Virus record (IMG/VR): IMGVR_UViG_3300012680_000001
Location: 1-63,427 of that record
Reading direction: 5' to 3' (one strand)
Length of the DNA: 63,427 nucleotides
Source of the DNA: a virus
Taxonomy: Duplodnaviria; Caudoviricetes
Made by a program: the position numbers and the translations under genes. The notes under the pieces are model-generated. The model saw only the letters and a program-made list of their open reading frames with translations, ran no database searches and was not told the DNA's origin. Of the stretch, positions 1 to 59,965 are shown piece after piece (the first letter of the stretch is position 1; each line of letters starts with the position of its first letter).

Positions 1-66
1 CTCCCGAGTCCTGCGGTTTCAGCGGCCTGGTCATCGGATCGCCCCGCGCTGCTACCAAGCGCCGCA
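1..66. repeat. Terminal direct repeat, left copy (circular assembly overlap)
   Basis: Bases 1-66 are identical to 63362-63427, and a minus-strand ORF reads through the junction in frame. Confidence 0.95.
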
Positions 67-422
67 ACTGCGGCGCTTGGTAGATTCGCCGCTTTTCGCG
101 TCTTCGCCCGCGCTTGGTACATCGGCAGGAGCGTCTCGGCAAACTTCACGCGCTGATACTCGGTGAGTTCTCGCCCGGTGATGTTCAGCTCAATAGCAAG
201 GATGTCCTCTTCAAGGGGCGTAAGGCCACGGTGGGCGACCGTGGGGTAGGGGATGCCCAGTTCGTCGGCGATGGCTTTGCGATGATGGCCGTCAATGATC
301 GGGCGATACTCACCGACATGGACTGGCGACAGAACGCCGTGCGTCGCGATGCTCTCCCGGAGGCGCACGTATTCCGCGTCAGTCAGTGGCGGCATAGGAT
401 TCGTGACATCAAGTTGTGTCAT
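1..422 (-). CDS. ParB/Spo0J-like N-terminal domain protein, 5' part (continues across the junction to 62596; about 395 aa total)
   Basis: Manual translation from ATG at 422 gives MTQLDVTNPMPPLTDAEYVRLRESIATHGVLSPVHV...IIDGHHRKAIADELG, a ParB-N-like motif. It joins the 62596..63249 ORF in frame. Confidence 0.8.
   Translation of the reverse strand, partial: MTQLDVTNPMPPLTDAEYVRLRESIATHGVLSPVHVGEYRPIIDGHHRKAIADELGIPYPTVAHRGLTPLEEDILAIELNITGRELTEYQRVKFAETLLPMYQARAKTRKAANLPSAAVAALGSSAGRSDDQAAETAGLG
52..83. repeat. Perfect 15-bp inverted repeat inside the ParB-like gene
   Basis: ctaccaagcgccgca-ac-tgcggcgcttggtag. Confidence 0.9.
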
Positions 423-424
423 GT

Positions 425-1078
425 CTACCCTTTCTCGAATGCCGTGAGATACTCGCGGCGCGGTGCATTTTCTAACACCGCCTTGACCGTAGATACTGCC
501 ATCTCCAGCGCGTGCGGTAGGGAGTGCCCAACGATAACAATATCCGGGTGCTCTAGGATGGTCACCTCGACGAGTTCTGGCCCGGCATAGTGGAAGCGCA
601 GCGTGATGTGCACATCCTCCGGAAGTCCCGGCACCTGGGTCGGGCGCTGTGCTTCTTGAATAGCCTCACGCAATGCGTTCCGTGATAACTGCTGTTCTTC
701 GGCGCGTTCGAGCCAAGATTCCTGCTCATCGGGCGGGAGGGCAGCGACGGTGGCATGGTGGTCGAAGCTCAGACGATCACGCCGCGCATGAACATCAATA
801 GCGCCCGCAACCCACTTCATATTGGCTAGCGCGCCGTAGGAGTAGGTCGTCTCGTTGAGCATCTGCGCGTACGTCTCTCCGTAGCGCCGCTCGGCAAAGC
901 GCAGCGTGTCGCCAATCCACCACTGCACACGATTCCCGAGTGTTACGAGACGGCGGTAGGTGTCCTGCACGACCTCATACGGCGCGTCCTCGCGCCAGGT
1001 GGCTCCGGTCGCGGTGAACTGCACGTAGTCATCTCTGGCGACGAGTTCGCCGGTTTCGAGGATGGAGACGTCGATCAT
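425..1078 (-). CDS. LmbU-like DNA-binding protein
   Basis: WWIGD...ERRYGETY...RRDRLSFDHHATVAAL...WLERAEE...SRNALR resembles the LmbU family seen in phages. Confidence 0.65.
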   Translation of the reverse strand: MIDVSILETGELVARDDYVQFTATGATWREDAPYEVVQDTYRRLVTLGNRVQWWIGDTLRFAERRYGETYAQMLNETTYSYGALANMKWVAGAIDVHARRDRLSFDHHATVAALPPDEQESWLERAEEQQLSRNALREAIQEAQRPTQVPGLPEDVHITLRFHYAGPELVEVTILEHPDIVIVGHSLPHALEMAVSTVKAVLENAPRREYLTAFEKG

Positions 1079-1692
1079 GGAGCCACCGCCGGCTGCGCGT
1101 TCTGTAGTCTGGCAATGAGGTTGGACGCATCACTCTTCGTGAGCGCCGAAGGATTCATCCCCGGCTGTTTCGTGATGTAGTCGTCGAGTTGTGATGGACT
1201 CATGCCGGCATCCCGGGCGACGACGTGCAAGTATTTGATCTGGCGTTCCGTGGCGGCCTGGGGATCACTCTCCGGCGATTGCGATTGATTCCTGGGAATC
1301 GGTAGCCGCGTTGGTTCTTGTGAGCGCCCCACCGGCGCATCGACAACGCGTCCAGTCGCAGCTCCGAATTCATGGTCCGGACAGAACTGCGTTCCGAACC
1401 CCAGCGCCGCCAGTGCCCGGCCAATGGCCTTCGTCTCGCTTTTCTCGTAGTGGTCTTTGAAGTCACGGGGCGTTTCGCTGCCGTGCCCCGTCGCGCTCCC
1501 ACCATCGTTGGGAACCCAGACCGTCGCCTTAAACAAGGCGAACGTTTCATCTCCTGCCAGCATTTCGGTTTCAATGCGACCATCAGGATGCTTATCGCGA
1601 AACCAGGCGATTCTCCATTTCACCTCAAGATAGTCGTTGCCACTGACCTTCATCAGGTGAGCACTCGGGTCGAATGGTGTTGTGTCGCTCAT
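1075..1692 (-). CDS. Single-strand annealing recombinase (Rad52/Sak-like)
   Basis: YLEVKWRIAWFR...GRIETE...ATGHGSE...EKSETKAIGRALAALGFG plus a C-terminal ATERQIKYL motif. Confidence 0.7.
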   Translation of the reverse strand: MSDTTPFDPSAHLMKVSGNDYLEVKWRIAWFRDKHPDGRIETEMLAGDETFALFKATVWVPNDGGSATGHGSETPRDFKDHYEKSETKAIGRALAALGFGTQFCPDHEFGAATGRVVDAPVGRSQEPTRLPIPRNQSQSPESDPQAATERQIKYLHVVARDAGMSPSQLDDYITKQPGMNPSALTKSDASNLIARLQNAQPAVAP

Positions 1693-1710
1693 GCCGTTTC
1701 CTTTCTTCTC

Positions 1711-2095
1711 TTGCCCGCCCTGCCGCGCCCAACCCTGCCGGGCCTATCCGGTCCACACCCAGCCAAGCCATGCCCGTCATACCTCGCCACGCCCTACCCT
1801 TCCTGGCCATGCCTTACCCGCCTTACTAGGACTTGCCTTGCCGGACCTTGCCTGGCCTAACCTCTCTGTGCCCGCCTCACCCAGCCAGGCCCCATCGCGC
1901 CTTGCCTCACGACCCAATCCAGTCCATGCCTTACCCGCCCCGCCAGTCCGCGCCATGCCCGCCTTACTGTGCCGTGCCATGCCTAACTCCACCCCACCTG
2001 ACCATGCCATGCCCGCCTCGCCAGTCCGCGCCTCGCCTCGCCAGTCCGCGCCCGCCGAGCCTCACCTTGCCCAGTCTTGTCTTGCCGCGCCCCTG
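1711..2095 (-). ncRNA. Pentamer (GGY-NN) array A, putative guide-RNA array, about 8-9 units
   Basis: The plus strand parses as NN-RCC pentamers with CGCC punctuation (central g at 1717, 1776 variant, 1820, 1874, 1937, 1961, 2015, 2054). It is intergenic. The ncRNA role is inferred. Confidence 0.75.
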
Positions 2096-2099
2096 CATA

Positions 2100-2609
2100 C
2101 TAATCGGCCGCCGTGGTTGTCATCGGCCCATTCCCTTCTGCCTCGGCGATACCGTCTTCAAGGTCGTTGCGCCAGAGCATAATCTCGCTAATGTACTTCT
2201 CCACCGGACTGTCCCATCCCAGCGCCCGTGTAATGTCCGACGCCCGCCGTAGGTTGCCGAGCGCCCGATTGATCTCCTGGATAATGACGCGCCGTTGCCG
2301 TGTCTCGTTCGTCACGCTCTCCAGCGTCACGTACCCCTGCTCCCGGCCAGCATCAGGATCGCGCACGTAGCGCACCACACGGATGATGTCGGTTTTGCTC
2401 CGCACCACCACATGAACTGAGCGGATAACAGTCCGCGCTTGATCGAGTCGGTACGCCTCCGCCGCGCTCGCGTCGTCCCAGTCAAAGAGCGGATGTAGGA
2501 GACTTTCGGGCTTCCGCGCCTCGCCGATGACCGCGCTGGGCGTTAACTGCCCGGCGTCGTGGAGGGCCTGTAACACATTCCGCTGTTCGGGATTGAGCAT
2601 GGTAAGCAT
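2100..2609 (-). CDS. Phage protein adjacent to the Cas7-like gene (accessory)
   Basis: LTPSAVIGEARKPESLLHPLFDWDDASAAEAYRLDQARTVIRSV motif. ATG at 2609 follows an AAGGGG RBS; the longer ORF start lies inside a palindrome. Confidence 0.75.
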   Translation of the reverse strand: MLTMLNPEQRNVLQALHDAGQLTPSAVIGEARKPESLLHPLFDWDDASAAEAYRLDQARTVIRSVHVVVRSKTDIIRVVRYVRDPDAGREQGYVTLESVTNETRQRRVIIQEINRALGNLRRASDITRALGWDSPVEKYISEIMLWRNDLEDGIAEAEGNGPMTTTAAD

Positions 2610-2629
2610 TCGTTGCCCCTTTTGTTGCG

Positions 2630-2663
2630 GCATAGGGGGTGGCGGTACCGCCACCCCCTATGC
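2630..2663. repeat. Perfect 34-bp palindrome between the Cas7-like and accessory genes
   Basis: gcatagggggtggcggt|accgccaccccctatgc. Confidence 0.95.
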
Positions 2664-2666
2664 GCT

Positions 2667-3482
2667 TTAGTCCGCCGCCAACGCCGCGATCTTCTTCACC
2701 GAAGACGGCGATCCTCTCAAGCGCCGTCGTTCCATCTCTTCATCGTGCCAGGCCAAGAGGTCCGCAGTTTCCTCGTCGTAGGCCACGGGCACGCGTAGCG
2801 CTTCGAGTTGCACCTCTCGCCCGCCACTCGCCACGATGGCGCCGAACTCCGCATCATCCTCCTCTTGGATAGGATGGAATAACCCGTAGTTTCCCGAACC
2901 CTTGCCCTGCCTCCACCCGCCCACGCCACAGAGGATGCCCGCACCCGCCAAGAGGTTTGAAATCGTGTTCGGGGTGAGATTCGGCACGACGTATTTGATC
3001 GTGAGTTTCGTCGCCCACGGGGTGATGATGGGACGCGTTCGGATGTCCGGAGTCTTACCGATGTCCGCCGAGCGTACGCCCGACATGAGGAGTCGCGGGA
3101 TACCCCATATCGGAGCCCACTCTCCAACGATATAGGTCATCGCACCGATCTCGGTCTTTTTCGCTCCCGGCGTACGGAGCGCTGCGGCGAGGAGCGCCGC
3201 CTTAAATGATGTGGACGGCATCGCCAGGCGCGTCGGGCCATCAGGTACGACATACGCGGCTTCGGTGTACTCCTCGCGCGGATTATGCTTCTCGTTTTGC
3301 TCCTTCTCTACAGTCGTCATCCGGCCCTTGGGCGCGAGGAGCGCACGCTGCGCTTTGGTTGAAAATCGTTCCATAATGAGCGGCGTGTCGCCGATGATGC
3401 GATACGAAATCTCATTCTGATCAACCCGGATAACGTCAATGGAATATCCGTCCAATGCTGTAGACTTTCTAATCGGTGCCAT
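2667..3482 (-). CDS. Stand-alone RAMP/Cas7-like RNA-binding protein (Vipr-like)
   Basis: N-terminal strand ISYRIIGDTPLIM, LAMPSTSFKAALLAAA (compare RAMP IPGSSLKGALR), and a C-terminal Gly-rich loop GILCGVGGWRQGKGSGNYGLF. Good RBS (AAGGAG). Confidence 0.75.
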   Translation of the reverse strand: MAPIRKSTALDGYSIDVIRVDQNEISYRIIGDTPLIMERFSTKAQRALLAPKGRMTTVEKEQNEKHNPREEYTEAAYVVPDGPTRLAMPSTSFKAALLAAALRTPGAKKTEIGAMTYIVGEWAPIWGIPRLLMSGVRSADIGKTPDIRTRPIITPWATKLTIKYVVPNLTPNTISNLLAGAGILCGVGGWRQGKGSGNYGLFHPIQEEDDAEFGAIVASGGREVQLEALRVPVAYDEETADLLAWHDEEMERRRLRGSPSSVKKIAALAAD

Positions 3483-3574
3483 GTCCTGTCTCTCCTTGTG
3501 TAGATGCCTGAGAGCCGTTTACCTTGCGACGATTCCGGATATGGCACCACCCCCCTTCATTGTGTTCCTACGAT

Positions 3575-4215
3575 GGCCTTACCCGCCATGCCCGGCCTAA
3601 CTACGCCTTGCCTCTCCCTGCCGTGCCCGCCCGTCCGTGCCTCGCCGTGCCAACCCCGGCCGCGCCAGGCCTCGCCCGCCTCTCCATACCGTGCCCGAAC
3701 TCTCCCGCCTATCCTCTCCCGCCTAACCGATCCATGCCTGACCCGACCACGCCCTGCCCGCCTGGCTATGCCATATCATGCCGGTCCTGGCCTCGCCAAA
3801 CCCTGCCCGCCTAACCGAGCCAAGCCCTGCCTCACCAATCCCTGCCCGCCTTGCCAGGACGCACCATTCCGCACCTCGCCCAGACTCGCCCGCCCGGCCA
3901 CGCCATACCCAGTCGCGACTGACCGCGCCATACCCGCCTCACCCAACCTCGCCCAATCCTACCAATCCCCGCCCGCCGCACCAGACCTAGCCCATCCGCG
4001 CCCGTCCTGTCCATGCCCGCCATACCTCTCCATGACTCGCTGCGCCATGCCCTGCCCATCCACGCCCGTCCTATCCGCGCGCCGCCTCACCCGCCGTACC
4101 TTGCCCAGCCGTGCCCAACTAGGCCTCGCCGTGCCCGCCGTACCTTGCCGCGCCGTACCTTGCCGCGCCATGCCACGCCGCGCCATGCCATGCCCGCCGT
4201 ACCGTGCCCAAACCC
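3575..4215 (-). ncRNA. Pentamer (GGY-NN) array B, putative guide-RNA array, about 14-15 units
   Basis: 15 CCCGCC separators with spacings 44,49,29,14,39,49,39,44,44,39,44,74,44,59, all 5n+4. It lies directly upstream of the Cas7-like gene. Confidence 0.8.
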
Positions 4216-4216
4216 T

Positions 4217-4375
4217 CTACCTCTGCCAGTCCCATCGCGGCAGGTGCGCGACGATCAACGCGTGAAGACTCGGATAGTGCTCAACGAAGCGTGCCGCCTT
4301 CTGTCGCCAGCGTTGCCACAACGGCGCGAACCTATGTCGATCATTCGCCACCCGGATATCCCACCGCTCATGCAT
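4217..4375 (-). CDS. Small hypothetical protein (52 aa)
   Basis: ATG overlaps the end of the upstream ORF and follows a purine-rich RBS. Its stop codon abuts array B. Confidence 0.45.
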   Translation of the reverse strand: MHERWDIRVANDRHRFAPLWQRWRQKAARFVEHYPSLHALIVAHLPRWDWQR

Positions 4376-4655
4376 CAGTTCCCCCTTCCTCTTCGTACGC
4401 GTTCCGTTCGAACGCTTGGAGCGCCATCGCCAGGCTGCTCGGGGTGTACGCATGACGATCCAGGAGCAGCGCCAGCATCGTGGACGCGACACGGCCTCGC
4501 GCCCAATTGAGACGGTGGGCGATGTCATCAACGACGGCATACGCCACGGGGCCAATGTCCAAGCGCCGCTCATTGCCGAGCAGGTGATGACGTTGATCGC
4601 GACGGAGCGAACCCTTCCGTGGTCGCTTCGGCGAGAGCGTGAGTCGATTCTCCAT
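4368..4655 (-). CDS. Hypothetical protein, first gene of the leftward operon
   Basis: 95-aa ORF with a GGAGGGG RBS, downstream of a consensus promoter. Confidence 0.65.
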   Translation of the reverse strand: MENRLTLSPKRPRKGSLRRDQRHHLLGNERRLDIGPVAYAVVDDIAHRLNWARGRVASTMLALLLDRHAYTPSSLAMALQAFERNAYEEEGGTDA

Positions 4656-4702
4656 ACCCCTCCCTATCTATCTAATTGATCCTATGAAACGTTGACTCGT
4701 AC

Positions 4703-4731
4703 ACTTTAGCGTCTAGACATCCGCGTGTCAA
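4703..4731 (-). promoter_or_regulatory. Sigma70-like promoter for the array/Cas7-like/Sak operon
   Basis: TTGACA (4726-4731), 17 bp, TAAAGT (4703-4708) on the minus strand. Confidence 0.7.
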
Positions 4732-4784
4732 GGGGATATGATGGCAGTGCGTTACACCAGTTCTCACACGTTTGGAGGTGTTCC

Positions 4785-5414
4785 ATGTCGGACTATGATT
4801 TCGTTCGTCGGTTCCTGAGTGACCGACCTATCGCGTTCCATCCTGAGATGGCGCGCAAACTCGGCGGCATCAACGAGGCGTTGTTCTTCCAGCAGATCGC
4901 CTACTGGTCTGACAAGGGCGCCGATCCCGAATGGATTTACAAAACACGCAGTCAGATCGAGGACGAGACGGCGCTTACACGTGGACAACAGGAGCGAGCG
5001 CGAAAAACTCTACGATCACTTGGCGTGATTTCGGAGGTTAAACGAGGGGTTCCTGCGAAGTTGTATTACCGTATTAATTGGCCGGCTGTGCATACCCATC
5101 TAGAGATTCCCCAGGATGCTCACAATGCGCACCCTAGGGTGCGCGAGGTAGGCAAGGTGAAGGGCGCAAAACGCGCACGCCAGGATGCGCGGAATGCGCA
5201 ATCTATTACAGAGAGTACGTCAGAGAGTACACCAAAGAAGATACGGGAAAAACCATTTTCTGATGTTCAGAATCTAGAATATGACGCCGAATTGTTGACA
5301 CGTATCCAGACGATGACGCCAGAGGAACGGCTCAATGCCTACGAGCAATCGCTCAAACTCGGGCAACTCGCTCGTAACCTAGGCTGTTGCGTGGCGAGTG
5401 ATAGGCGCTCTTGA
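4785..5414 (+). CDS. Phage replication initiator-like winged-helix protein
   Basis: RPIAFHPEMARKLGGINEALFFQQIAYW...WIYKT...EDETALT...RGVPAKLYYRIN. GGAGG RBS before ATG 4785. Internal palindrome at 5127-5144. Confidence 0.7.
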   Translation: MSDYDFVRRFLSDRPIAFHPEMARKLGGINEALFFQQIAYWSDKGADPEWIYKTRSQIEDETALTRGQQERARKTLRSLGVISEVKRGVPAKLYYRINWPAVHTHLEIPQDAHNAHPRVREVGKVKGAKRARQDARNAQSITESTSESTPKKIREKPFSDVQNLEYDAELLTRIQTMTPEERLNAYEQSLKLGQLARNLGCCVASDRRS

Positions 5415-5438
5415 CGGGAACACTGTCGGTGCTAGAAT
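5411..5438 (+). promoter_or_regulatory. Putative promoter of the Cro-like gene
   Basis: TTGACG, 16 bp, TAGAAT with an extended TG. Confidence 0.5.
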
Positions 5439-5478
5439 CTCCAACATGTAACAATGTTTATCACGATTGGAGGAGCAC

Positions 5479-5700
5479 ATGACGGACAGAGTGATTACCC
5501 CCCGGCCACGAAAACCAGCAATGAGCCCGGAAGAGTTGCGGGAGTTTCGTTTGGCGCGCGGATGGAATCAGACGGAACTCGCGAGGCGTATCGGGGTAAG
5601 TAGCGCGGCGGTGTCGCTCTGGGAAGCTGGGCGGCGCGCGATTCCGCAACCGGTGGCACTTGCATTGAAGGGTATTGACAATGTTGAAATGTCATGCTAG
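5479..5700 (+). CDS. XRE/Cro-like HTH regulator
   Basis: LREFRLARGWNQTELARRIGVSSAAVSLWEAGRR; GGAGGAG RBS. Confidence 0.9.
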   Translation: MTDRVITPRPRKPAMSPEELREFRLARGWNQTELARRIGVSSAAVSLWEAGRRAIPQPVALALKGIDNVEMSC

Positions 5701-5707
5701 GATACAT
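5675..5707 (+). promoter_or_regulatory. Promoter overlapped by the CTAGGATACAT motif
   Basis: TTGACA (5675-5680), 17 bp, TAGGAT (5698-5703). The 11-mer recurs at 54567 and 54624. Confidence 0.65.
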
Positions 5708-5751
5708 CCATAGAGCAGTTGGGCTCTACGGACATCGAAAGGGAAACGGCA

Positions 5752-6144
5752 ATGAACACGATCCCCAATGTCGTCAACACACTCTCCCGAGAAACACGGA
5801 ACCGCCTCCTCCACGATTCCATCGCTAAGGGTGATGAGATTCGTCAGGATCGGCGCAACCCGGACGTTTGGCTCGTGAGCTCAGCCACCCACCCCAACGT
5901 TTGGTATCGCGTTCGCAACGGTCGGCATTGTGGATGCCAAGCGTTCGCTCATCGCGGCTATTGCCGGCACCTCGTGCGCCTCAGCTTCGAACTCCACCAG
6001 ATGAAGAACGCCACAGAGACCAATACGCCCGAGTCCATCGCGGACTGCACAGAGTGCTGCGGATGTGGAACCGTCTACTCGCCATCCGGCGGCTGGAAAT
6101 GCGACGCCTGTAGCGGCTCCGGTCGCGTCCTCGCCGCCGTCTAA
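5752..6144 (+). CDS. SWIM zinc-finger protein with C-terminal CxxC pairs
   Basis: HCGCQAF...YCRHL (SWIM), then CTECCGCG...CDACSGSG. Confidence 0.7.
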   Translation: MNTIPNVVNTLSRETRNRLLHDSIAKGDEIRQDRRNPDVWLVSSATHPNVWYRVRNGRHCGCQAFAHRGYCRHLVRLSFELHQMKNATETNTPESIADCTECCGCGTVYSPSGGWKCDACSGSGRVLAAV

Positions 6145-6156
6145 AGAAGGGACAGA

Positions 6157-6393
6157 ATGATGAGCCAGGAAATCACTACCTTCAACGGCGCGCAACTCCG
6201 TACACGTCTCGCGCTTTCCACAACGGCGCGCGGCTGGGACTTCGAATCGAGCGCCGAATACACCGGGCCAATGCCGGACACCGAAGGAGGCACGAGGCAA
6301 ATCGTCAACCAGCTTGACTTCGTGCAGTTGCTCTTGCGAGAGAAAGGAGAGGCTGAGCGTAATCTAAGAAACCAGCGAGACGGCAAGGGATAG
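6157..6393 (+). CDS. Hypothetical protein
   Basis: ORF with an RBS in the rightward operon. Confidence 0.55.
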   Translation: MMSQEITTFNGAQLRTRLALSTTARGWDFESSAEYTGPMPDTEGGTRQIVNQLDFVQLLLREKGEAERNLRNQRDGKG

Positions 6394-6417
6394 TATCGCG
6401 AGAATAGAGGCTCCCAA

Positions 6418-6627
6418 ATGAAGACCATGACCGTTACAGCTCTTTCCCCATCACCGCACGCCACGACGCAGGACGAGCCCTATATGGCCGCCACACGCAA
6501 TGTCCGTGGCACCGAGCACCCAGTCGTCGTTGATCAACGGACAGACCGCGCGGAAATCATTTGTGAAACGCTCAAGTCCGCCGAATCGCTCGCCAGGCGA
6601 CTCAACCGGGATAGGAAGCTACGATGA
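6418..6627 (+). CDS. Hypothetical protein
   Basis: ORF with a GAGG RBS in the rightward operon. Confidence 0.55.
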   Translation: MKTMTVTALSPSPHATTQDEPYMAATRNVRGTEHPVVVDQRTDRAEIICETLKSAESLARRLNRDRKLR

Positions 6628-6868
6628 ATAACGATACCTACTTCCTCGTCGCCTCAGTCATACTGATAGCATTTCTGACCATCTGGGCGTTCTGGCCCGT
6701 AGATGTGAATACCGTGCAGTCAAGAATCACCAGAGGAAGGAACTAGACATGGCTCGTAAGTATCGTGAGGTCACCTATCAAGAGGCCGTCGGTATCGGAT
6801 TTATGGGATGGATTATTCGCATCATCCTCTTCATCATCGTGCTGGCGATCATCGGGGCAATGCTCTAG
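6624..6868 (+). CDS. Two small single-pass membrane proteins (about 6624-6746 and 6749-6868)
   Basis: MNNDTYFLVASVILIAFLTIWAFWP... and MARKYREV...GWIIRIILFIIVLAIIGAML; closely coupled starts. Confidence 0.5.
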
Positions 6869-6904
6869 CGGAGCGCGGATCGCTGGGAATTCAGGGGAAT
6901 ACGC

Positions 6905-6936
6905 GTAAACGCCGGAGTGGGGGCTCCGGCGTTTAC
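6905..6936. terminator. Hairpin between convergent operons, probably a bidirectional terminator
   Basis: 13-bp stem gtaaacgccggag/ctccggcgtttac. Confidence 0.7.
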
Positions 6937-6989
6937 TATGACGGAGAAAAACGGGGCGCTACGGAGGCGGCCTAGCGCCGCAGGTGATA

Positions 6990-7334
6990 TCAGGGAGGTG
7001 GGGAAAGCGTTGGAACGCCCGTCGTGTTCGCGGCATTGCTGACCGCGATCTTGGCTGCCGAACGGGGCGAGAACGCAGAGAGCCGTCCCCAGAGCGCGTT
7101 CACCGCAGAAATGATGATAGGCGCGAGCACGAACAGGGCGACGGTGATGCTGCCGACCTGATCGACAATGATATCTCGCTGATCCTCTGAGATAAGCCCG
7201 AACGCGCCCAGTGCAATACAGATCGATGTGACGATCCCGACTACGGCGGCCTTCGCCACGAGCGGCTCGGTATTGAGAAACGAGTCGTCTCTCGCCTGCG
7301 CGACGACTTCCTGTCCCGTCTTCTGCTCACTCAT
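6990..7334 (-). CDS. Holin
   Basis: Two TM segments (EPLVAKAAVVGIV...; ITVALFVLAPII...) directly after the endolysin. Confidence 0.7.
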   Translation of the reverse strand: MSEQKTGQEVVAQARDDSFLNTEPLVAKAAVVGIVTSICIALGAFGLISEDQRDIIVDQVGSITVALFVLAPIIISAVNALWGRLSAFSPRSAAKIAVSNAANTTGVPTLSPPP

Positions 7335-8812
7335 GAAGCTACCTCCTTCGTTCCTGTCTCCGGTATTCTACTCCCAATGGATGTCACCCAAAACCATACT
7401 CCGTCCGTGCCGAGCGCCTTCGTGCCAGCTTGAAATTTCTCCCCCTTCCTCAGCGGCGCGCGCACCGGGTCCGCCTCGGGATTCGCGTATTGCAGTACCG
7501 GCACACTCTCCGCCACCACCTCCACCCATACTTCTGGATTATCGTCGCTCAGCACGAACGGCTGCCGCTCAGCGTAGATCGTCGGGGCGGAGCCGCCCAT
7601 AGCCTCGATCAGCGCCGGCCCGGGATCAAGCAGCCAGTAGGAACCATTCCTAAGAACACTCACCTCGATATGCACATGAGGACCGTTCATGCCCCCACTC
7701 GTGACGACCGGCTGCCCGGCTGTCACCCGCTGCCCCGGCGTCACCAGCGCTTGGTTGCAATGACCGAGCGTAAGCTTGTGCCCCGAGTCACCAAAAATGG
7801 TGATATTCCCCACCCCGCCGGAAATAGTATCGGCATAGGCGCCGCACCCTTGTCCCCAGCGCGGAGTGCCGCGACTCCCGACACAATCGACTACGCCACT
7901 GATAGGGGTAAAGAGTTTCGTTCCGAGCGGTAGGCTGACATCGTAGCCGGTGTGCTGTGTCGCTCGACTGGTGCCGTGCCCCACCCCATAGGCGTAATAG
8001 TTGAGCCCCGCATCCGCGCCCCACCCATAGTCAACCGGTGGATACGATGCCCCACCCACAATCATGTCGATCACCTGCTTCACCGTGAGAGGTTTTGGTT
8101 TTGGCGGCGGGGTGGGAGCGGTTCCGCCTGCCGCCGCATCAATCTGCCGCATTAGCTCGTGCAGGTCCGAGAGGTACTGCCGTTGGGTGTGCCCGTCCGG
8201 ACCCTTCACATCGAGCCCGCCCGCGATCGGATAGTAGGATGATAGGAAAATATCCTCTGGCGTGCCCGTCTTCCCGCTCTTGCCACCGAGCACGTAGGCG
8301 GCGATAGCGACTTGCCCATCCGCGCTCTTGATCGAGACGCCGAGGTCTTTGGCCACCTGATCCCATGGCGTCCAGTAGCCCGCGCCGAACTCTTGCGAGG
8401 TGAGTTGCATCGGTCCCCAGTTGGGGTATCCGTTGCCGTTCGGAATCAACTGCCCACCCGATTCGATAACCATGATGGCTTTGAGCATCGCCGCAGGAAC
8501 GCCATAGAGGCCTCCCCAGCGCACGAAGGAGGCATCATACGCATTGACCGTCGCCCATGGCCCGCCGCGCCCGTAGGCGATCTGTAGCGGGCCGCCGATC
8601 GTGCCGGTTGGCGCGCCAAGTGTCGCCGTGGATGGTTCGGGTTCTGGCTCTGGTCTAGGCGGTGGGACAGGGTCAATCTTTGGGGGCTTGGGGCGCCTCG
8701 GGGGTTTTACCGGGATGGGGGCAGGTGTAGCGCCCGGGTCCTTCGACGGCTTCTTGCGAATCGTACCCATCATTCGGCCTCGATCTCGGCTTGATAGATT
8801 GGGGCTTTCCAT
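7331..8812 (-). CDS. Endolysin: lysozyme/SLT-like domain + M23 peptidase + C-terminal SH3-like domain
   Basis: LKAIMVIESGG...GPMQL; HTGYD and GPHVHIE M23 motifs; Pro-rich N-terminus. Confidence 0.85.
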   Translation of the reverse strand: MESPNLSSRDRGRMMGTIRKKPSKDPGATPAPIPVKPPRRPKPPKIDPVPPPRPEPEPEPSTATLGAPTGTIGGPLQIAYGRGGPWATVNAYDASFVRWGGLYGVPAAMLKAIMVIESGGQLIPNGNGYPNWGPMQLTSQEFGAGYWTPWDQVAKDLGVSIKSADGQVAIAAYVLGGKSGKTGTPEDIFLSSYYPIAGGLDVKGPDGHTQRQYLSDLHELMRQIDAAAGGTAPTPPPKPKPLTVKQVIDMIVGGASYPPVDYGWGADAGLNYYAYGVGHGTSRATQHTGYDVSLPLGTKLFTPISGVVDCVGSRGTPRWGQGCGAYADTISGGVGNITIFGDSGHKLTLGHCNQALVTPGQRVTAGQPVVTSGGMNGPHVHIEVSVLRNGSYWLLDPGPALIEAMGGSAPTIYAERQPFVLSDDNPEVWVEVVAESVPVLQYANPEADPVRAPLRKGEKFQAGTKALGTDGVWFWVTSIGSRIPETGTKEVAS

Positions 8813-20095: not shown

Positions 20096-23000
20096 TTATG
20101 ACCCTCGTGATGCGGCCATCTGCGTTTGCCGGCGGTAGTTCTCAAGCGTTTCCACCAACTGCCTGCCGTCACGAACATCAGCATAGACGGTAATCGTCGT
20201 GGTGTTGTTGGTTGCGCCCCGGTCACCCGCACGGCCTCCTACGCCCCCGCCGCCATCTGGGGTGAGTCGCGTGCTCGGGATGTACACCAGGTCTTCCGAT
20301 GCCTCGCTTGCCTCCCGCTTCCGTCCACGGAGCCCGTAGATAAGGCCGAGGCCCATGTCGTCGCCGACTTCCATCATCTTCTGACTTGGCGAGTTCGCCT
20401 TCGCGGCGCCCTTGGCCGCGTTGATCGCATCCTTGACCATCTGCGCGGCGGAGTCGGCGATCCCTTTGGATTTCTCCATCACGCCTTGCTTCATGCCGTC
20501 GCCCATTGCCGAGCCGATGTCCTTGCCACCCTGTGAGGCAATCTGCGTTGAGTCCTTGACCGCATCCCCCACGCCCTTGCCCATCGCCGTCTGAAACTGT
20601 GGTATTTCCGGCCCGGTCTTGATCCGGTTAACAGCCGCATCCCCGAATCCGGTGGCCGTCGCCTTGCCTCCCTGCGTCGCTATCTTCGTCGCGCCGTCAA
20701 CACTCTTGTTCATCCCGTCCAGAATACTCTGGTGGATTTGCGGCAACTGCACACCCAAACCAGTACGCATTTCTTGCCCAAAGGCATTCGCGATTTTCGA
20801 GCCGCCAACGTTTGCTGCCTGTTCGGTCTGGGTCATGCCCTGCTGTACGCCCTGGAGCATCTGCTGTTGCATAGCCGGGGCGTCCTGCCCCATCTTGGCC
20901 GTAATCCCTTGGCCGAGCGCCGTGCCGATCGCGGTACCACCCGTCGCCGCCGTGCCTTTCGTCTGCTCGACCATCGCCGCGAACTTGTCGTTAAACGCCT
21001 GACTGTCGGCGGACATCTTCGTCATAACTTCTTGGTACTTGGCCCCCATGTCATTCATCTTCGTACTGGTCCCGGTCGCCGCCTTCCCGGTCTCACTGAT
21101 GGCCTGCGTCGTTTCTTCCATCGGCGCGGCGGGCACCTCGCCGAGCGCTTTCGCGGCCTTGCCCATCTCGGTCGCGGCAGTTGACATCGCTGTAGCCGCC
21201 TTGCCCAGTTTTTCGGCAATCTCTGTTAAGAGCGCGTTGACATCCACCTCTTGCAACCCAGCAATCGCCGCGTTGAGATACTGGACCTGCGCAGTAGCTT
21301 GCGCGAGTTGCTCCGGTGACTGCGCGTTGGCTTGCTTCTCTAGCGCCAGCGCGAGTTGGTTCGCGAGGTCAATCTTCTGCCGCTCGAGCTCGAGTTCCGC
21401 CTTGAGTTGCGCGGTCTTCTCCGGGTTAGCGTGCTTCTTGAGTTCCTTCTCGATCTGGGCAATGCGCTTCGTGGATTCCTCGATGACGATCTGCGTAAAT
21501 GCCACCTGTGCGGCGTGCTGCTGCTTGAGGAGATCCGCCTGCATCGCCTTCTCTTGGGCAAGTGCTGCCTTCTTCGCTTCGAGATCGGCGGCGACGGCGG
21601 CACGTTTCGCCTGCAATTCTGCTGCTGCCATCGCTTCAGCGGCGGCCGCTCGCATCGCGGATTCTGCAGCGATTGCGGCTTGAATCGCTTTGAGTGAGGC
21701 AATGAGTTCTTGCTCTTTGGCCTGTGAGGCGATCTTGGCAACGTAGGTCGCTTGGGCCTTAGCGAGCTTCGTATCGAAGTCGGCTTTCAGCCCTGCCTCG
21801 CCACCCCCCTGGACCTGCTTGATATTGGCCTGATGCGCGGCGTCGAATTCTGTCTTGAGTTGCGCTTCGAGTTCTTTTGTAATGGCGACCTGGATATCGA
21901 GGAGTGCTTGGGCCGCATCGATCCGCGCCTGATCAGCCTCCTGTTGCGCCTTCGCAGCAGCAGCAGATGCGGCGCCAGCAATTTGCGCATCGATCCCGGC
22001 AAGCTCAGATTCTAGACTCTTAATGTCACCTTCGAGGTTTGAAATCGACTTCCCGACAATCTCAATCTGGGTACCGAGGCCAGCGATAAGCGCCCGAATG
22101 CGCTCGATTGCATTCTCTGCCGCCTTCACCGCCTGATCGGTCACGAACTGGGCGAACTCCATAGAACCGGAGGCATCCAACATCCCGAGCCAGAATTCGC
22201 GCGCGAACGCCTCGCCTAGGAAGCGCATCTCACCCTCACCTTTGAGGAGTTCTTTCAGCGCCTTCTTCCACATACGGCGCGCAGCTCTTTCGAGTTGCTT
22301 GTCTTCACTCTCCATGCCTTCGGCGGTTGCGGTCGCCGCCGCCGCGCCCGCCGCCGTCCCGCCACTCGCTGCCTCGCCCTTAACGCGCGCCATTGCGCTC
22401 TGCATCGACGACTTGACTTTGCCCATCGCTGAAGAGACCGCGCCGGATATCTTGCCCATCGCCTCGCCGAGTCGAGACTTAGCGGAATCCATCATGCCCT
22501 GCGCGAACCCGCCCGTTACGGCGGCGCCGTGGGGGACGAACTTCTGCGCGGGCGATCCCATGCCGATAGCGTTCGCCATGCTGTCCATCGTCATGCCAGC
22601 GAGGGTGTTGCTGCTCTTTTCTACGGAACTCTGACCGCCCGTCATGCCAATCGCGAGGCCCTGAACGATGCTCTCGCCGAACCTGATAAAGACTTTCGAA
22701 GGTGAACCTTCCTCAATTGCATTGCTAAACCCACCGGCGAGCGCCGCTCCAATAGCCGCCCCCGCTGCCCCCGCCGCTGCGGCTATCCCTTGGAGCGAGG
22801 CGATAATCCCGGCAGCAGCGGCCGCGATGGCCCCAGCGGCGGCGCTTACCGCCGCAATCATTGCCTGCATGGCTTCTTCGACAGCTGTCGCTGCATCTGC
22901 CGCTGCCGTGCCGACTTCCTCTGCTGCGGTTACGGCATCGTTTGCTGCCGTTGCCATATCGGCTGCCGCATCTGCAACGGCACTTGCCATATCTGCTACG

Positions 23001-26000
23001 GCGGTTTCGACATCGGCTACGGCGTCCGTAATCGCCGAACTCATGTCTGTGACGGCGGATTCGACATCAGCTGTCGCGTCGCTAATCGCCGATCCCATTT
23101 CCTCCACGGCGTTCGTCACGGCTTCTGTAATCTTCGTCATCGACTCTTCGATTTTGGTGGCAACCTCTTGGATAGCCGTATCGAGTTCCGTGGTGAGTTG
23201 GGTACCCACGGCCTCTCCGACACCCGAGAAGTCCGCGCCTTCGACACCCGTCTGCAGCATCGTGCCGATGCTATCTCCCAGTTGCGTGGAGACATCGCTC
23301 TCGCCCCCACCATCAGCCACGGTCTGCAACGTCTCGCTCAGCTTGGTCGAGAGGCCCGTGCCGACCGTATCCCAGTTCGCTTCTTGGACGCCGCTCAGGA
23401 GCATTTCACCGACCGAGCCGCCAAGTTGCGCCCCGACATCGGTCGCGCCCGATCCGTCACCCTCGCCGACAGCTGTGGTGAGCGCCTCGCTCAACTTTGT
23501 GCCGATTGCGCTACCAACTGGGGTGAAGACTTCGGCCGGGGCGTTCGTAATCGAGTCGGTCAGGCCAGTGGCGAGGTTGCTTACGAGTTGTGTGCCGATA
23601 CCGCCCGCCGCGTCTGAGGACACCTGTCCGGTCTGGCCCTGCGTGGCTGTTTCGGTCATCGCCGTATTCAGCGCGGTGCCGAGTTGGGTGCCGAGGGCCG
23701 CGCCGACCGGGAGAAATAACTCTGGAGGAGCAGCGGTGATGGACTCCGTTAGCCCCGTGGCGAGTCCTTGCACCATCCCGACTCCTGCGCCGGGGACACC
23801 CGTGGGGACTCCGGTTGGTCCGGGGGCCGCCGTCTGTTGCGCCGCCATCGACATAGCTGCCCCGAGCTGGGTGCCGAGCGCGTTGCTTACTGGGATAAAC
23901 ATTTCCGGCGGAGCGGCGATGATCGATTCTGTGAGCCCCGTGGCGAGTCCCTGAACCATTCCCACGCCCGCGCCCGGAACACTTGTTGGGACACCAGTTG
24001 GACCTGGTGCTGCCGTCTGTTGGGACGCAAGACTCATTGCGGCCCCGAGTTGCATGCCGAGCGCGTTGCTGACCGGCACGAACATCTCTGGTGGAGCGGC
24101 GGTGATCGATTCGGTAAGGCCAGTGGCGAGTCCTTGGACCATTCCTACGCCGGCACCAGGGACCGTGGTCGGGACACCTGTTGGTCCTGGAGCCGCCGTC
24201 TGCTGGGATGCCAGCGACATCGCGGCGCCCAACTGGGTGCCAAGCGCGTTGCTGACTGGAATAAACATCGCTGGGTCCGCCGCCGCGATGCCAGTCGCGA
24301 GGCCAGTCGCCAACCCTTGAACCATCGTGTTACCGAGCGGAGTCACCGCAGGTCCCGCTGGCCCAACGCCACCAGGAGCCTGAGTAACCTTCTCTGCCAT
24401 GCTCATCGCCGCGCCGAGTTGGGTGCCAAGCGCTCCGGCGACAGGGGCGAAGAGCTCCGGTGGGGCGGCGGCGACGGACGCGGTGAGGCCGGTAGCAAGG
24501 CCCTTGACAAGATTTATCCCCCCGACCGTCGGCAGAGAAGCTACGCCTTCATCAGAGACTTGCTGTCCGGCGATTGTCTGAAGCGCGGTTCCCAACTGCG
24601 TGCCGAGTGCGCCGGCAACAGGGGTGAAGAGTTCGGCAGGTGCATTGGTGATGGAGTTTGTCAACCCATTGGCAAGGCCCTCGACCATCTTCTGGCCCAT
24701 CGTCTGACCCGCCGAATCTCCCTCTGTAACGGGCTGATCAAGGGCTGTGGTCATCCCACTGGACAACATGCCGAGGAGAGACTTCCCTACGGCGTCGAAC
24801 TTCCCTTCCTCCATAGTTTTAAGACTGTTCTCTATCCCAGTAGCGAACTCAGGTGAGGCAAACGTGTCGGCAATTTCCGTCCCAAGCTTCGCGCCCATCT
24901 CGGCAGGATCGCCGAGCATCTTCGCCGCCTCTCCGGTGGCTGGGTCTTCACCACCGCCAAAGAGCGCTGAGCCAATTGGGCCAAGCCACTCGCCGAGTTT
25001 ATCCTTCACGGCTACGAAAGGGTTATCCATTTCGCCAATTTTTGTGGCGGCTGCTTCTCCCATCCCTTGAAGGCCGGTGGCCATGTTATCGACAAAACCA
25101 CCGATCATGCCGAACATGTCTTCGCTAACCGCGCCACCACTCAGGTCCGCCCCTGGTCCGGTGTACCCCTCTTGCCCTCCACCACCAAAGAGGGATTTGG
25201 TCATATCCTCCCATTGACCACCAAACCAGGTGCCGACCTCCTCAAACGGATTCCCGACGGAGCCGAGTTGTTCTAAGACGCTAGGCCCCAGCTCCTTCAG
25301 CCCCGACACCATCCCCGTTGCAAGGTCATCCAGCACACCCGGTGTTTTGATGGTCCGGCCAGTCCCGCTGAGACTTTCGGATCCAAATAGCGTGTCTCCA
25401 ACATCTCCAAACCAATCGCCAATCTGACTCGTAACTCCCTCGAGGGGATTTCCGATCTCCCCCAACTTATCGACGACGGTGGGTCCGAGATCTTTAAGCC
25501 CCGACACCATGCCATTGGCCAGGTCGTCAAGGACTCCTGGCGTGCGTATCGTCCTACCTGTTCCGCTCAGGGCGTCAGAGCCAAACAACGTATCTCCGAC
25601 GTCCCCAAACCAATCGCCAATCTGGGTTGTGACTTCCTCTAATGGATTGCCAATATCCCCGAGCTTATCAACAACCGTGGGGCCAAGTTCTTTCAGCCCC
25701 GAAACCATCCCCGTCGCGAGTTCATCCAGCACGCCCGGCGTACGTATCGTCCTCCCCGTTCCACTTAAACTATCAGAGCCAAAGAGCGTATCCCCAACGT
25801 CCCCAAACCAATCACCAATTTGGCTTGTGACGCCTTCAAGGGGGTTTCCGATATCTCCGAGTTTATCCAGGACGGTGGGACCGAGGTCTTTCAGTCCCGA
25901 CACCATCCCATTTGCCAGGTCGTCAAGTACTCCGGGTGTTCGGATGGTTCTCCCAGTCCCACTCAGGCTATCTGAGCCAAACAAGGTATCCCCGACATCA

Positions 26001-29000
26001 CCAAACCAATCACCTATTTGGCCCGTCACTCCCTCTAGCGGGTTCCCGATGTCTCCGAGCTTTTCAAGAACGCTAGGCCCCAGCTCCTTCAACCCCGAAA
26101 CCATTCCTGATGCGAGATCGTCAAGTACTCCGGGTGTTCGGATTGTTCTGCCAGTGCCACTCAGGGTATCAGAGCCAAACAGCGTATCTCCAACGTCCCC
26201 AAACCAATCACCTATTTGGGTCGTGACTCCCTCCAGCGGGTTCCCGATATCTCCGAGTTGATCAAGGACCGCAGGACCGAGGTCTTTCAGTCCCGACACC
26301 ATCCCAGTAGCGAGGTCGTCGAGCACACCAGGCGTTCGTATTGTTCTGCCCGTACCACTCAGGCTATCTGAGCCAAACAGGGTATCCCCAACATCTCCAA
26401 ACCAATCACCAATCTGGCTTGTCACGCCCTCCAACGGGTTTCCAATGTCTCCGAGCTTCTCAAGCACGTTAGGGCCGAGGTCTTTCAGCCCTGAGACCAT
26501 CCCAGTGGCCAGGTCGTCAAGTGCGCCAGGTGTTCGTATCGTCCTTCCAGTTCCGCTGAGAGTATCTGCCCCAAACAGCGTATCTCCAACGTCCCCGAAC
26601 CAATCACCTATCTGGCTTGTCACGCCTTCGAGTGGATTGCCGATGTCTCCAAGTTTCTCAAGAACATTAGGACCGAGGTCTTGCAACCCCGACACCATAC
26701 CGGTGGCCAGGTCGTCGAGAATGCCTGAGGTCTTAAATGTCCTCCCCGTCCCACTCAGCTCCTCGCCGCCAAAGAGTGTTTCCCCAATCTCTCCAAACCA
26801 ATCACCAACCTGGTCGCTCACACCCTGGAGTTTTCCACCGAGATCAACTTCCTCAAACTTCTGTCCTATCGCATCTATCCCGCCCTCAAAGCCTTTTGCG
26901 GCACCTTCCCAATCCCCCGAGGTTAGGGCGTCTTTAAAGTCGCCGAGACCATTCGTACCATCACGCAATCCAGCGCCGAGGCTCCCGAAGAACTTCTCGT
27001 AGTTCGGTTGCCCCTCTATGAGTTGCCCCATCGCGTCGCCGATATTTCCACTGGCCAGGGTGTCGGTAAAGTCTTGAATGTCTTTCTGGGCCAAGCTTGC
27101 TTGCATACCCAGGTCATCGAAGAAGGTGGTCAGCTCTTCGTCTTGGCCGGTGAGCGAACCTATCCCTTCGCGCAGTGCGAGCGCTTCGCGATTGAGTTGC
27201 GGCATCTTACCCTCGGACGCTGCCATACTCTGCTGCATGGCATCGGCGGCCTTGGAGAGACGATCCATCTGATCGGCCGTCTCGCCCATGCCGGCAGCGT
27301 CGGCGCCCTTAGCGAGGGCGTCAAAGAAACTGACGATCGGATCGACGCCGCCCGCAATATTCTCTTGCCAAGCATCCCCGAAAGCGTCCACGCCCTTGGC
27401 GATGTTACTCATTTGATCGACGACATCGATGCCGAACGCGGCCTTTAGGCTCTTCCCGACCGCATTGATTCCAGCGGCGAGATCGTTCATTCCCTGAGAT
27501 TTGCCGGCATTGAAGTTTGTGTCAAACGTCTCGCCGAAGGTGTCTAGCGCCTCACCAGCCTTAGCCATCGCCTTATCGACGGTGTCGCGGAAGCCCAGGA
27601 AGTTCGTTTCATACGCGAGGAGTCCGGCCCCAATCGCCAGCCCGGCAAGGCCAATCCCCGCTGCGAACTTACCCAGGCTCAAACCCGCATCAGCAAACGT
27701 CTTCCCGAGTTTGAGCACCTGCCCCGTACCGTAGGCGGCTAACCCACCAGCGGCAAGAAGGCCGCCACTGAGTGTGGCCAACTTCCCGGCAAACCCAAGA
27801 AGCGCTGGGTCGGCTCCCGATGCCGCGTCGGCAATACCTGTAAGCGCGTCTACCCCGGCTTTTATCGGACCAAGGAACGGATCGCCCATCTTCTGTTGCA
27901 GGACATCCACAGCCCCACCAAGCTCTTCTATGGAGCCCAGGAGGTTATCAGTGAGAGCGTCTGATTGCTCCCGTGCAATGCCGGTGTTGTTTTTCATCTC
28001 CTCATTGAGGTCGCGCAACTTATCCGTGTCAGAGAGGATACCCAACCCGGCGGCATCGAAGGCTTCGAGGCCGAATAGACTGGCCAAGGCATTGAGACGC
28101 TGGCTCGTGCTGAGGTCTTTTGTCTTCTCATTAATCATATCAAGGATGTCGGGGAAGTCCCGTAACTCCTCGACGCCCTGTTCGTTGATGTCAAAGAAAT
28201 CTGCGGTCGTGATGCCGAGTTCGTCCATCGCGGCCTGTTGCGTTCCCGTCGGTTTGACCGCTGCCCGGAGCATAGCGGTAAGACTGGTGCCCGCTTCAGC
28301 TGCGCTCAGGCCTTGGTCCTTGAAGAAACCGAGGGTAGCTGCCGTTTCGTCAAAGTCCGCGCCCGCGAGTTTCATCATTGGGGCGACGTTTGCCATGCCT
28401 TTGATAAAATCATCTGAACCCAGGGATGTCGTGTTAAAGACGGTCGTGAGGTCGTCAAGACTCGCCGTCACTTCCTCAGACGACATGCCCCACTGGTTCG
28501 CCATAGTGGCGGCGATTTTTGCTGCCTGAGGGAGTTCAGTAGCGGTGGCCGCCGCGAAGTCGGCGACTCCCTGGATGGCCCCGTCCGAGGAGTCGCCGAC
28601 ATCACCCCACATCGTTTCAAAGTCAACGCCGGCCTTACCCATTTCGATGGCGGCTTCAGAGATGTCATCAGCTCCGAAGATGGTTGACTTCGCCACCTCA
28701 TTGATGGTGTCTTCCATCTCGCGGAATTGGGCGTCCATCTCGGCAGACTTGCCTTCGGTAATGCCGAAAGCTACGCCGACGCGATCCATCGCCTGTTCCA
28801 TCGTGGCGGCGCTCTTCACTGCGCCAACGATGGGTGCAAGCATCGCCGCGCCAGCGGCCATCCCTATCTTGCCGGTGGTGGTGAGCACCTCCCCCGTCTT
28901 CTGAATTGATTTCCCGGCATTGCCCGCCGCGCCCGCGACTTCGTTCAGCTTGCCCGAGGCAGCGCCCATTGCCGCGTCGAAACCGGAAGAATCGGCCGTT

Positions 29001-59660: not shown

Positions 59661-59965
59661 GACCAATTCTCCTTCTCGAAGAAAAACAAAAACCGCCCAC
59701 GGAGCGCCCATGTGCGGTACATCTCAGCATCGCGAAACTGCTCGAGTGTCAGGTTGGCTTTGCGCTGGTTACAGGTCCGGCAGGATGGCACGGTATTGCG
59801 ACGAGAGCGCTCGCCGCCCAGACTCAGCGGCATCACGTGGTCTATCGTGCGCAGGTCGTCCGGCGTCGCATGGCCGCAATAGGCGCACACCCCGCCGCTC
59901 GCCTCCCATGCCGCTATGCGGTTGGCGCGCAGAAATGCACGCTTAGTCACCCGAGGAGGGATCAT
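59657..59965 (-). CDS. HNH endonuclease
   Basis: CAYCG...TIDHVMPLSLGG...NTVPSCRTCNQRK. Confidence 0.9.
   Translation of the reverse strand: MIPPRVTKRAFLRANRIAAWEASGGVCAYCGHATPDDLRTIDHVMPLSLGGERSRRNTVPSCRTCNQRKANLTLEQFRDAEMYRTWALRGRFLFFFEKENWS

Follow-up and report, generated by a model that had tools for sequence, protein, structure and literature searches.

We analysed the complete 63,427-bp IMG/VR record IMGVR_UViG_3300012680_000001 (hereafter, the window), the genome of a tailed phage with a large terminase, a major head protein, tail genes and primase/helicase genes, and studied a C-rich intergenic tract, array A, which lies at positions 1711..2091 on the minus strand, i.e., the strand of the neighboring genes, downstream of an accessory gene at 2100-2654. 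In minus-strand order, the locus runs from a promoter-like site through a second array (array B), the gene vipr, and the accessory gene to array A. The evidence presented below indicates that array A is very probably the downstream guide-RNA (vrRNA) array of a phage-borne VIPR (Viral Interference Programmable Repeat) system. The features of the locus are as follows:

4703..4731, minus strand: promoter-like site TTGACA-17-TAAAGT, a consensus match at 10 of 12 positions, facing the operon and paired with a divergent plus-strand site
3574..4222, minus strand: array B, predicted vrRNA array on the upstream side, with 15 segments that each close with GGCG and with stubs at the ends
2667..3482, minus strand: vipr gene, 271 amino acids (aa), phrog_4652, a minimal Cas7-like RAMP protein whose C-terminus is extended by about 60 aa of helical structure
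2100..2654, minus strand: vap-like accessory gene, 184 aa, phrog_15946, directly after vipr
1711..2091, minus strand: array A, predicted vrRNA array on the downstream side, with 9 closed segments and a stub of 1 unit

No terminator-like site was found by consensus matching in positions 1-5600.

The non-coding gap at 1693-2099, which lies between two genes of the minus strand, 2100-2654 (184 aa) on one side and 1075-1692 (205 aa) on the other, consists of 48% C on the plus strand (197 of 407 bases), and its self-identity amounts to 0.52, 0.46, and 0.48 at lags of 5, 10, and 15 nucleotides (nt), respectively, compared to approximately 0.28 in the neighboring genes. Array A fills this gap, as the original prediction had proposed: it starts 9 nt past the stop codon of the accessory gene and ends 18 nt short of the ATG at 1692, immediately before an AAGGAAA ribosome-binding site. 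Parsing by dynamic programming resolved array A into 70 pentamers, 9 four-mers, and 1 three-mer. The pentamers follow the grammar NNDCC on the plus strand, corresponding to GGH-NN on the gene strand, with C at position 4 in 65 and at position 5 in 66 of the 70. For array B, a tract spanning 3551-4240 upstream of gene 2667-3482, the parse yielded 116 pentamers and 17 four-mers; the proposal that array A is a second cassette with the grammar of array B is thereby supported, with pentamers and 4-nt breaks in both arrays and a Vipr-family gene between them. Across all 186 pentamers of the two arrays, CC is found at positions 4 and 5 in 93-95%, C is the third RNA base in 57%, with U, A, and G accounting for 25%, 15%, and 3% (GGY units making up 82%), and the remaining two positions are variable. 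This pattern was compared with 500 dinucleotide-preserving shuffles of each C-rich tract: the chain scores of 57.5 for array A and 106.5 for array B stand against an average of 6-7, with 6.0 for array A, and a maximum of 16 in the shuffles, and the lag-5 identity of array A (0.522) against 0.326 ± 0.021 (maximum, 0.383), which excludes a chance origin of the array A pattern. Furthermore, when the array scorer was run over both strands of the entire 63,427-bp genome, it returned arrays A and B only, both of them C-rich on the plus strand.

The pentamer register is broken by the four-mers, most of which are CGCC on the plus strand (GGCG in the RNA sense; 6 of 9 in array A and 13 of 17 in array B). 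It is this 4-nt unit, shifting the register by one base, that acts as the separator of the parse, rather than the hexamer CCCGCC to which the original prediction had assigned this role and which consists of the four-mer and the preceding CC. The motif CCCG[CT]C starts at 1714, 1773 (CCCGTC variant), 1817, 1871, 1934, 1939, 1958, 2012, and 2051; the separator coordinates listed earlier were all 3 nt too high and missed the CCCGCC at 1939, whereas the listed spacings of 59, 44, 54, 63, 24 (5+19), 54, and 39 were exactly right. Every one of these spacings equals 5k+4, in line with runs of pentamers that are each closed by one 4-nt unit. A degenerate 4-nt break that had been suspected near 1911 is real as well, reading TCAC on the plus strand (GTGA in RNA) and closing segment A5 at 1907. 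With the closing 4-nt unit included in each unit count, the segments of array A are:

2053..2091, minus strand: segment A1, 8 units, terminal GGCG included
2014..2052, minus strand: segment A2, 8 units, with GGCGC GGACT GGCGA duplicated internally
1960..2013, minus strand: segment A3, 11 units
1936..1959, minus strand: segment A4, 5 units, short, with two CCCGCC motifs 5 nt apart
1907..1935, minus strand: segment A5, 6 units, closing unit degenerate (GTGA; TCAC on the plus strand)
1873..1906, minus strand: segment A6, 7 units
1819..1872, minus strand: segment A7, 11 units, 3 of them without an initial GG
1775..1818, minus strand: segment A8, 9 units, closing unit GACG (the CCCGTC variant)
1716..1774, minus strand: segment A9, 12 units, each beginning with GG; of the long guides, the cleanest one

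Together, the two arrays comprise 24 closed segments (9 in array A and 15 in array B), 19 of which have at least 7 units. This count agrees with the 22-24 putative guides in two cassettes that had been anticipated, their role as guides being suggested by the family membership of the system. The unit strings of the two arrays do differ, as claimed: no array A guide duplicates an array B guide, and the most similar pair agrees at 6 of the 10 variable bases in 5 units, which is not beyond chance. Array A is, thus, no degenerate copy of array B. Adjacent segments are separated only by a 4-nt unit, leaving no space for a tail of about 40 nt, and the only recurring element of the arrays is a motif of 4-6 nt. 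Where GGCG is followed by GGCNN, the sequence can be read as GGCG[G]GCNN, i.e., with a formal overlap of 1 nt. The flanks of the 23 GGCGGG boundaries are only weakly conserved: the first variable base downstream of the break is a purine in 22 cases, and the preceding unit is GGU in 11. As a side observation, CCCGCC occurs 78 times on the plus strand and 16 times on the minus strand of the genome; the arrays supply only about 28 of the 78, and the strand bias persists outside both of them.

VIPR systems, which are related to CRISPR and read DNA with a gapped RNA code, were first described in 2026 (10.64898/2026.04.26.720920, 10.64898/2026.04.26.720927, and 10.64898/2026.10.15.759431). They combine Vipr, a minimal RAMP protein encoded by phages, with the accessory gene vap. 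According to these preprints, the vrRNAs comprise 9-16 tandem GGY-NN units and are encoded up- and downstream of vipr-vap on the vipr strand; each unit is bound by one Vipr protomer, double-stranded DNA (dsDNA) is recognised with one skipped base after each NN, and the outcome is transcriptional silencing of rival phages and satellites.

The 271-aa protein of gene 2667-3482 is a member of the Vipr family. A phmmer search against PDB sequences returned a single match, 36pp (36pp_D), the "SUSP1 Vipr protein", with E = 0.0015, and a profile built from 25 array-adjacent homologues matched SUSP1 Vipr (36pp) with E = 2.4e-37 over residues 1-189 of 202. An AlphaFold2 model of the window protein (pLDDT 88.2, pTM 0.81) had Csm3/Cas7 (6ifn_E, E = 3.6e-5) as its top Foldseek match, followed by Cmr4, Cas7-11, and type VII Cas7; all of the Foldseek matches listed are chains of CRISPR effector-complex entries, and those of known identity are members of the Cas7 family. 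The window Vipr contains the glycine-rich loop GVGGWRQGKGSGNYG, and its R150, which aligns with the thumb residue R138 of SUSP1, is invariant across the alignments, while the C-terminal helical extension of about 60 aa is common only to its own subclade.

The backbones of Class 1 CRISPR-Cas complexes (Cas7/Csm3/Cmr4) resemble this system in their RAMP fold, in the use of one protomer per fixed guide step, and in a thumb that interrupts pairing periodically. However, their step is 6 nt with 5 pairing bases, in contrast to 5 nt with 2 pairing bases in VIPR, and the window differs from CRISPR-Cas loci in being carried by a phage and in having neither long direct repeats nor captured spacers. A CRISPR-Cas array was rejected as an identity for array A: there are no long identical direct repeats with unique spacers, and among the neighboring genes of the 4.7-kb operon that were examined, none matched a Cas family and only a single one is RAMP-like.

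Homologous arrays were sought beyond the window by sequence similarity and by pattern. A distant blastn search with positions 1-5500 against cultured phages matched array A alone, with an identity of 66-68% in 11 records of Mycobacterium phages. The tract matched in phage BobaPhett is likewise built of pentamers, interrupted by TGCC four-mers, and part of it is annotated as a 55-aa "hypothetical protein". A scan of IMG/VR with the bare DNA pattern (GCCNN)x6GCC returned at least 138 stretches, many of which are arrays of 150-1,550 nt with TGCC or CGCC 4-nt units; base preferences of the arrays fetched in this way are biased towards GGC by the GCC in the search pattern. Among the pattern-fetched loci, tblastn revealed homologues of the 271-aa protein in 33 of 80 loci with 2-kb flanks as well as in loci L001, L104, and L113, and homologues of the 184-aa protein in 17 loci, but none of any of the ten other proteins queried from the first 8.8 kb of the window. 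The G-rich strand is the coding strand of vipr in 28 of 28 loci in which a scored array accompanies a vipr homologue, two pairs of these being overlapping pieces of one contig. Since the homologues recur with arrays and always on the same strand, the array and both genes form one module that is read on one strand.

This linkage bears on explanations that assign the tract a structural role without any guiding, namely an R-loop or two-tier G-quadruplex tract, a Rho-resistant spacer, or low-complexity coding sequence on the plus strand (open reading frames 1682-2182 and 3504-4265). The GC skew of the array tracts, which reaches -0.37 to -0.46, would suit such a role, GG-N3 repeats could in principle stack, and the plus-strand frames do span both arrays. 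However, none of these candidates needs a fixed-sequence 4-nt punctuation or the strict coupling to a same-strand Cas7-like gene that holds in 28 of 28 loci. Moreover, the plus-strand frames have no Pfam or PHROG match and would be expected by chance at 48% C (an estimate, not a computed value), CC is kept in all three codon phases, and the array RNA folds only slightly better than its shuffles (z = -1.8). A purely structural element is, therefore, extremely improbable. After the gene linkage and the Vipr match had been established, we dropped, as individual candidates, an R-loop or Ig-switch-like tract, a two-tier G-quadruplex, an antisense Rho rut site, a TRAP-like attenuator, a partition centromere, an iteron replication origin, and low-complexity coding sequence. 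The repeat in Tweety gp54 was likewise rejected as an equivalent, as it is described as a 12-bp coding repeat.

For a quantitative comparison, we compiled 41 non-redundant arrays, i.e., the two of the window and those of loci scoring at least 40. The four-mer is GGCA in most of these loci and GGCG in the window, and the 202 inner segments have a median length of 10 units with a mode of 8-13. Several arrays do without any four-mer, such as that of locus L011, where 141 consecutive pentamers extend from 1961 to 2665 with no 4-nt break; similarly, a 1.5-kb array at positions 1864-3411 of locus L050 has very few breaks. Four cluster F mycobacteriophages (BobaPhett, locus L001; ByChance, locus L162; Saal; and Mattes), whose annotated vipr homologues are all 747 nt long, allowed for a comparison of array content between related phages. 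ByChance lacks exactly one 11-pentamer segment together with its GGCA unit, Saal lacks one pentamer, and Mattes carries one substitution at an NN position, so that all three changes respect the pentamer grammar. The comparison of array content in relatives that the original prediction had called for thus revealed changes of segments, units, and NN positions in these mycobacteriophages; for the phage's own lineage, a search of IMG/VR with the window Vipr found no close relative. The nearest relatives share 37-48% identity and lie on contigs of metagenome-assembled genomes (MAGs) from several phyla, labelled Anaerolineales, Betaproteobacteria, Sphingobium, Planctomycetaceae, Hyphomonas, and three Rhodobacteraceae. 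Arrays on the vipr strand reached the threshold in 4 of the 9 nearest-relative loci, and 3 of these 4 use GGCG followed by GUC. On the Sphingobium contig, two vipr homologues (L143 and L145) are encoded approximately 34 kb apart, the L143 copy having an in-frame stop, and no array at threshold was detected within 3.5 kb of either.

The behavior of the segments in related phages is also relevant to the idea that the arrays are a periodic protein-binding RNA that merely regulates its own operon, in the manner of TRAP, through titration or nucleation of Vipr and without guiding to DNA. A 5-nt period with a fixed GG would suit an RNA binder that forms a ring or filament, and the arrays lie inside the predicted operon transcript. 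Nevertheless, the variable dinucleotides differ between segments and between arrays, whole segments come and go among related phages, and the characterised family member is reported to use the variable positions as a programmable code. We consequently regard autoregulation alone as very unlikely.

Within the VIPR systems, the published survey covers 664 loci and distinguishes seven types (10.64898/2026.04.26.720920). The legend to its fig. S18 refers to "staggered arrays", in which vrRNAs come from positions overlapping by 1 nt; small-RNA sequencing is reported in its main text for the ribozyme-interspersed and single-vrRNA forms, not for the staggered one (10.64898/2026.04.26.720920). Judged by sequence, the 4-nt units of array A correspond to these staggered arrays. 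The two have in common a phage-borne vipr with an accessory gene, GGY-NN pentamers on the vipr strand, the lack of a long tail, and the coincidence of the end of one guide with the start of the next (1-nt overlap), as the GGCG units of the window produce. The window departs from this description in having 15% GGA units and a Gly in place of the Asp of the G-loop.

Type II systems (SUSP1, FelixO1-like; wV8 is locus L140) share with the window the order of guides upstream, vipr, small accessory gene, and guides downstream, as well as the homologous Vipr (profile E = 2.4e-37), for which binding of one pentamer per protomer and DNA recognition with a 1-nt skip are presumed here by analogy. However, type II guides are GGU-rich, few (four in SUSP1), and each followed by a pseudoknot tail of approximately 40 nt (in wV8, the layout is one of GGU-rich units with a tail after each run), whereas the window has 24 tail-less segments. 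Furthermore, the accessory gene of the window is unrelated to vap1, and the window Vipr carries an additional helical domain at its C-terminus. Hence, the marks of type II, a structured 3' tail of about 40 nt and vap1, are absent from the window. In the ribozyme-interspersed form, hammerhead ribozymes lie between the guides; an Rfam E-value scan of positions 1-8000 found no ribozyme, hammerhead included, and gave a single sub-threshold, unrelated match.

Taken together, the window has the marks of a VIPR system: homology to Vipr, the RAMP fold, an adjacent same-strand array of GGY-NN units, a neighboring accessory gene, and a viral record. Family and fold of the Vipr protein, strand, synteny, and the comparison with other phages all support the reading of array A as a guide cassette. 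The grammar and strand of the arrays, their gene neighborhood, and the family and fold of Vipr were established directly, whereas we infer by analogy that the arrays would be transcribed and processed at the 4-nt units, that the published targeting rule would apply, and what kind of targets the guides would have; a look-up of sequencing runs for this phage listed one DNA run, probably the source of the record, and no RNA run. In the mechanism that we propose by analogy with SUSP1, transcription of the leftward early operon would pass from array B over vipr and vap into array A, yielding a G-rich transcript with runs of GG(C/U/a)-NN pentamers. Each pentamer would be bound by one Vipr protomer, which would hold the GGY and present the two variable bases, and the resulting filament would recognise dsDNA with one skipped base after each NN pair and, once bound, block transcription of a rival mobile element. 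The 4-nt GGCG phase break itself would serve as the punctuation, ending one Vipr filament and setting off another. More tentatively, and with less than even confidence, we suggest that in tail-less staggered arrays the guide boundary may be purely a phase shift: because the 4-nt unit (GGCG here, mostly GGCA elsewhere) puts the next GG off register, one filament would have to stop and another to nucleate, with the protein coat setting the ends and neither a structured handle nor a dedicated nuclease being involved.

Several observations weigh against the assignment of array A to a VIPR system or complicate it. First, 15% of the units are GGA, while the SUSP1 pocket excludes purines at this position, and 5 of the 24 segments are only 3-6 units long. 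Second, the G-loop of the window Vipr reads GVGGWRQ, with W190 and R191 kept but with Gly189 (codon GGG, 2916-2918) where 11 of 11 aligned relatives have Asp; in a wider alignment, the position is acidic in 24 of 24 others. In SUSP1, the triad D177, W178, and R179 contacts the fixed guanines together with His17, both His17 and Asp177 contacting the first guanine, and a D177A substitution abolishes silencing (10.64898/2026.04.26.720927). At the position of His17, the window has Glu39 (codon 3366-3368), most of its subclade having Asn there, so that the equivalents of the Asp-Trp-Arg triad and His17 are incomplete. Third, the accessory protein lacks homology to the vap1 of SUSP1-type systems (0.1% probability by hhalign for wV8 vap1) and falls into no recognisable family.

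Fourth, target searches, in which each GGY was replaced by one wildcard in accordance with the 1-nt skip, remained empty. The exact patterns of A9, B3, A3, A7, and part of B5 had 0 matches in IMG/VR, and those of A9 and B3 had 0 matches in JGI metagenomes; guide A9 had 0 matches in 5 MAGs when up to 3 mismatches were allowed, and 0 matches in 401 genomes, all from the class to which one Rhodobacteraceae MAG belongs, when up to 2 were. When only a 16-nt seed of A9 was used, there were 10 matches, with the flanking units at chance level. With skip lengths of 0-3 in 491 kb of fetched DNA, matches stayed at the level of shuffled guides except for A9 in the seed-selected loci. Among guides of at least 9 units, none had a match of at least 80% in the phage's own genome (the best being 17/24 and 20/30), which agrees with the published lack of self-targeting (10.64898/2026.04.26.720920). 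The empty searches say little, because few mismatches were tolerated, the host is unidentified, and the skip rule, as published, is proven for type II systems only, a restriction that itself counts among the reservations about applying the rule here.

The same observations raise the question of whether the locus is a decaying or disabled one, of VIPR origin but with silencing lost together with the Asp of the G-loop. Gly189, read against the loss of function in SUSP1 D177A, fits this explanation, as do the failure to find a target for any guide tested and the segments that are short or contain units not starting with GG. On the other hand, the vipr and vap frames are intact, the conformity to CC of 93-95% over 186 units would have been lost in a neutral tract, and the target searches had low sensitivity. 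Furthermore, the Gly codon GGG is two changes away from Asp, which makes a single sequencing error unlikely, and the replacement is accompanied by Glu39. Since both of the corresponding SUSP1 residues contact the same guanine, the two may form a compensating pair. Gly189 may represent either a rewired pocket or an impaired protein, and Glu39/Gly189 might be a compensated rewiring of the first-guanine pocket, perhaps tied to the looser GGH units. Overall, we consider decay unlikely. The missing Asp and His are a departure at the level of residues and leave the family membership of the window Vipr unaffected.

The accessory protein of 184 aa carries the conserved motif LH..F.WDD.EAA..YR..QAR.LIR, and its family had no match in PDB or Pfam by sequence. 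In its model (pLDDT 85.5), an N-terminal alpha/beta part is followed by a C-terminal helical hairpin. Foldseek returned no match for the model at E ≤ 0.001, and VIA-align gave only generic helical-hairpin matches, for residues 115-184. By the order of elements alone, the modelled N-terminal helices and beta-hairpin look winged-helix-like. The gene downstream of array A (1075-1692, minus strand), which had been labeled "Sak-like", has no PDB or Pfam match, and this label was not confirmed; protein-language-model features cluster it with Slr1353_N, a dsRNA-binding-domain-like family, with a high score, a lead only, and no homologue adjoins arrays in the other fetched loci. Further along the leftward operon, some 1.3 kb beyond array A, gene 3-422 (minus strand) encodes a ParB-like N-terminal domain (PHROG matches to 1e-12) and has no homologue beside arrays in the fetched loci. 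Elsewhere in the phage genome, whose large terminase reaches at best 46% identity with its counterparts in Roseobacter and Paracoccus phages, we noted two replication initiator O- or DnaD-like genes at 4725-5414 (plus strand) and 58944-59711 (minus strand), two DNA methyltransferase genes at 50451-51719 and 54884-55951, and a 2,979-aa open reading frame at 20096-29035.

With respect to the annotation of such loci, vipr homologues in 33 records of Mycobacterium phages, Gordonia phages, and cyanophages are all labeled as hypothetical protein. In four Mycobacterium/Gordonia phage records examined, arrays lie partly or wholly under short coding sequences with the same label, including:

L001 3051-3215: BobaPhett gene 51 over the array, annotated as hypothetical protein
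L162 533-691: ByChance gene 39 over the array, annotated as hypothetical protein
L163 2111-2380: Gordonia phage Pipp gene 43 over the array, annotated as hypothetical protein

While systems of this kind have been known since 2026, the window adds an example of the staggered, tail-less architecture. As far as the 2026 preprints describe them, experiments on VIPR are limited to SUSP1, P. fulva, and a few type III and type V loci. The window provides a well-preserved case of the least-studied architecture, with 24 tail-less predicted guides in two cassettes that are delimited by one-base register slips, and it flags a natural variant at a residue reported to be essential. The locus and the comparisons with other phages supply material for testing how staggered arrays are processed. 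If punctuation by phase alone holds true, guides would come and go as complete cassettes bounded by phase breaks, as is seen between ByChance and BobaPhett.

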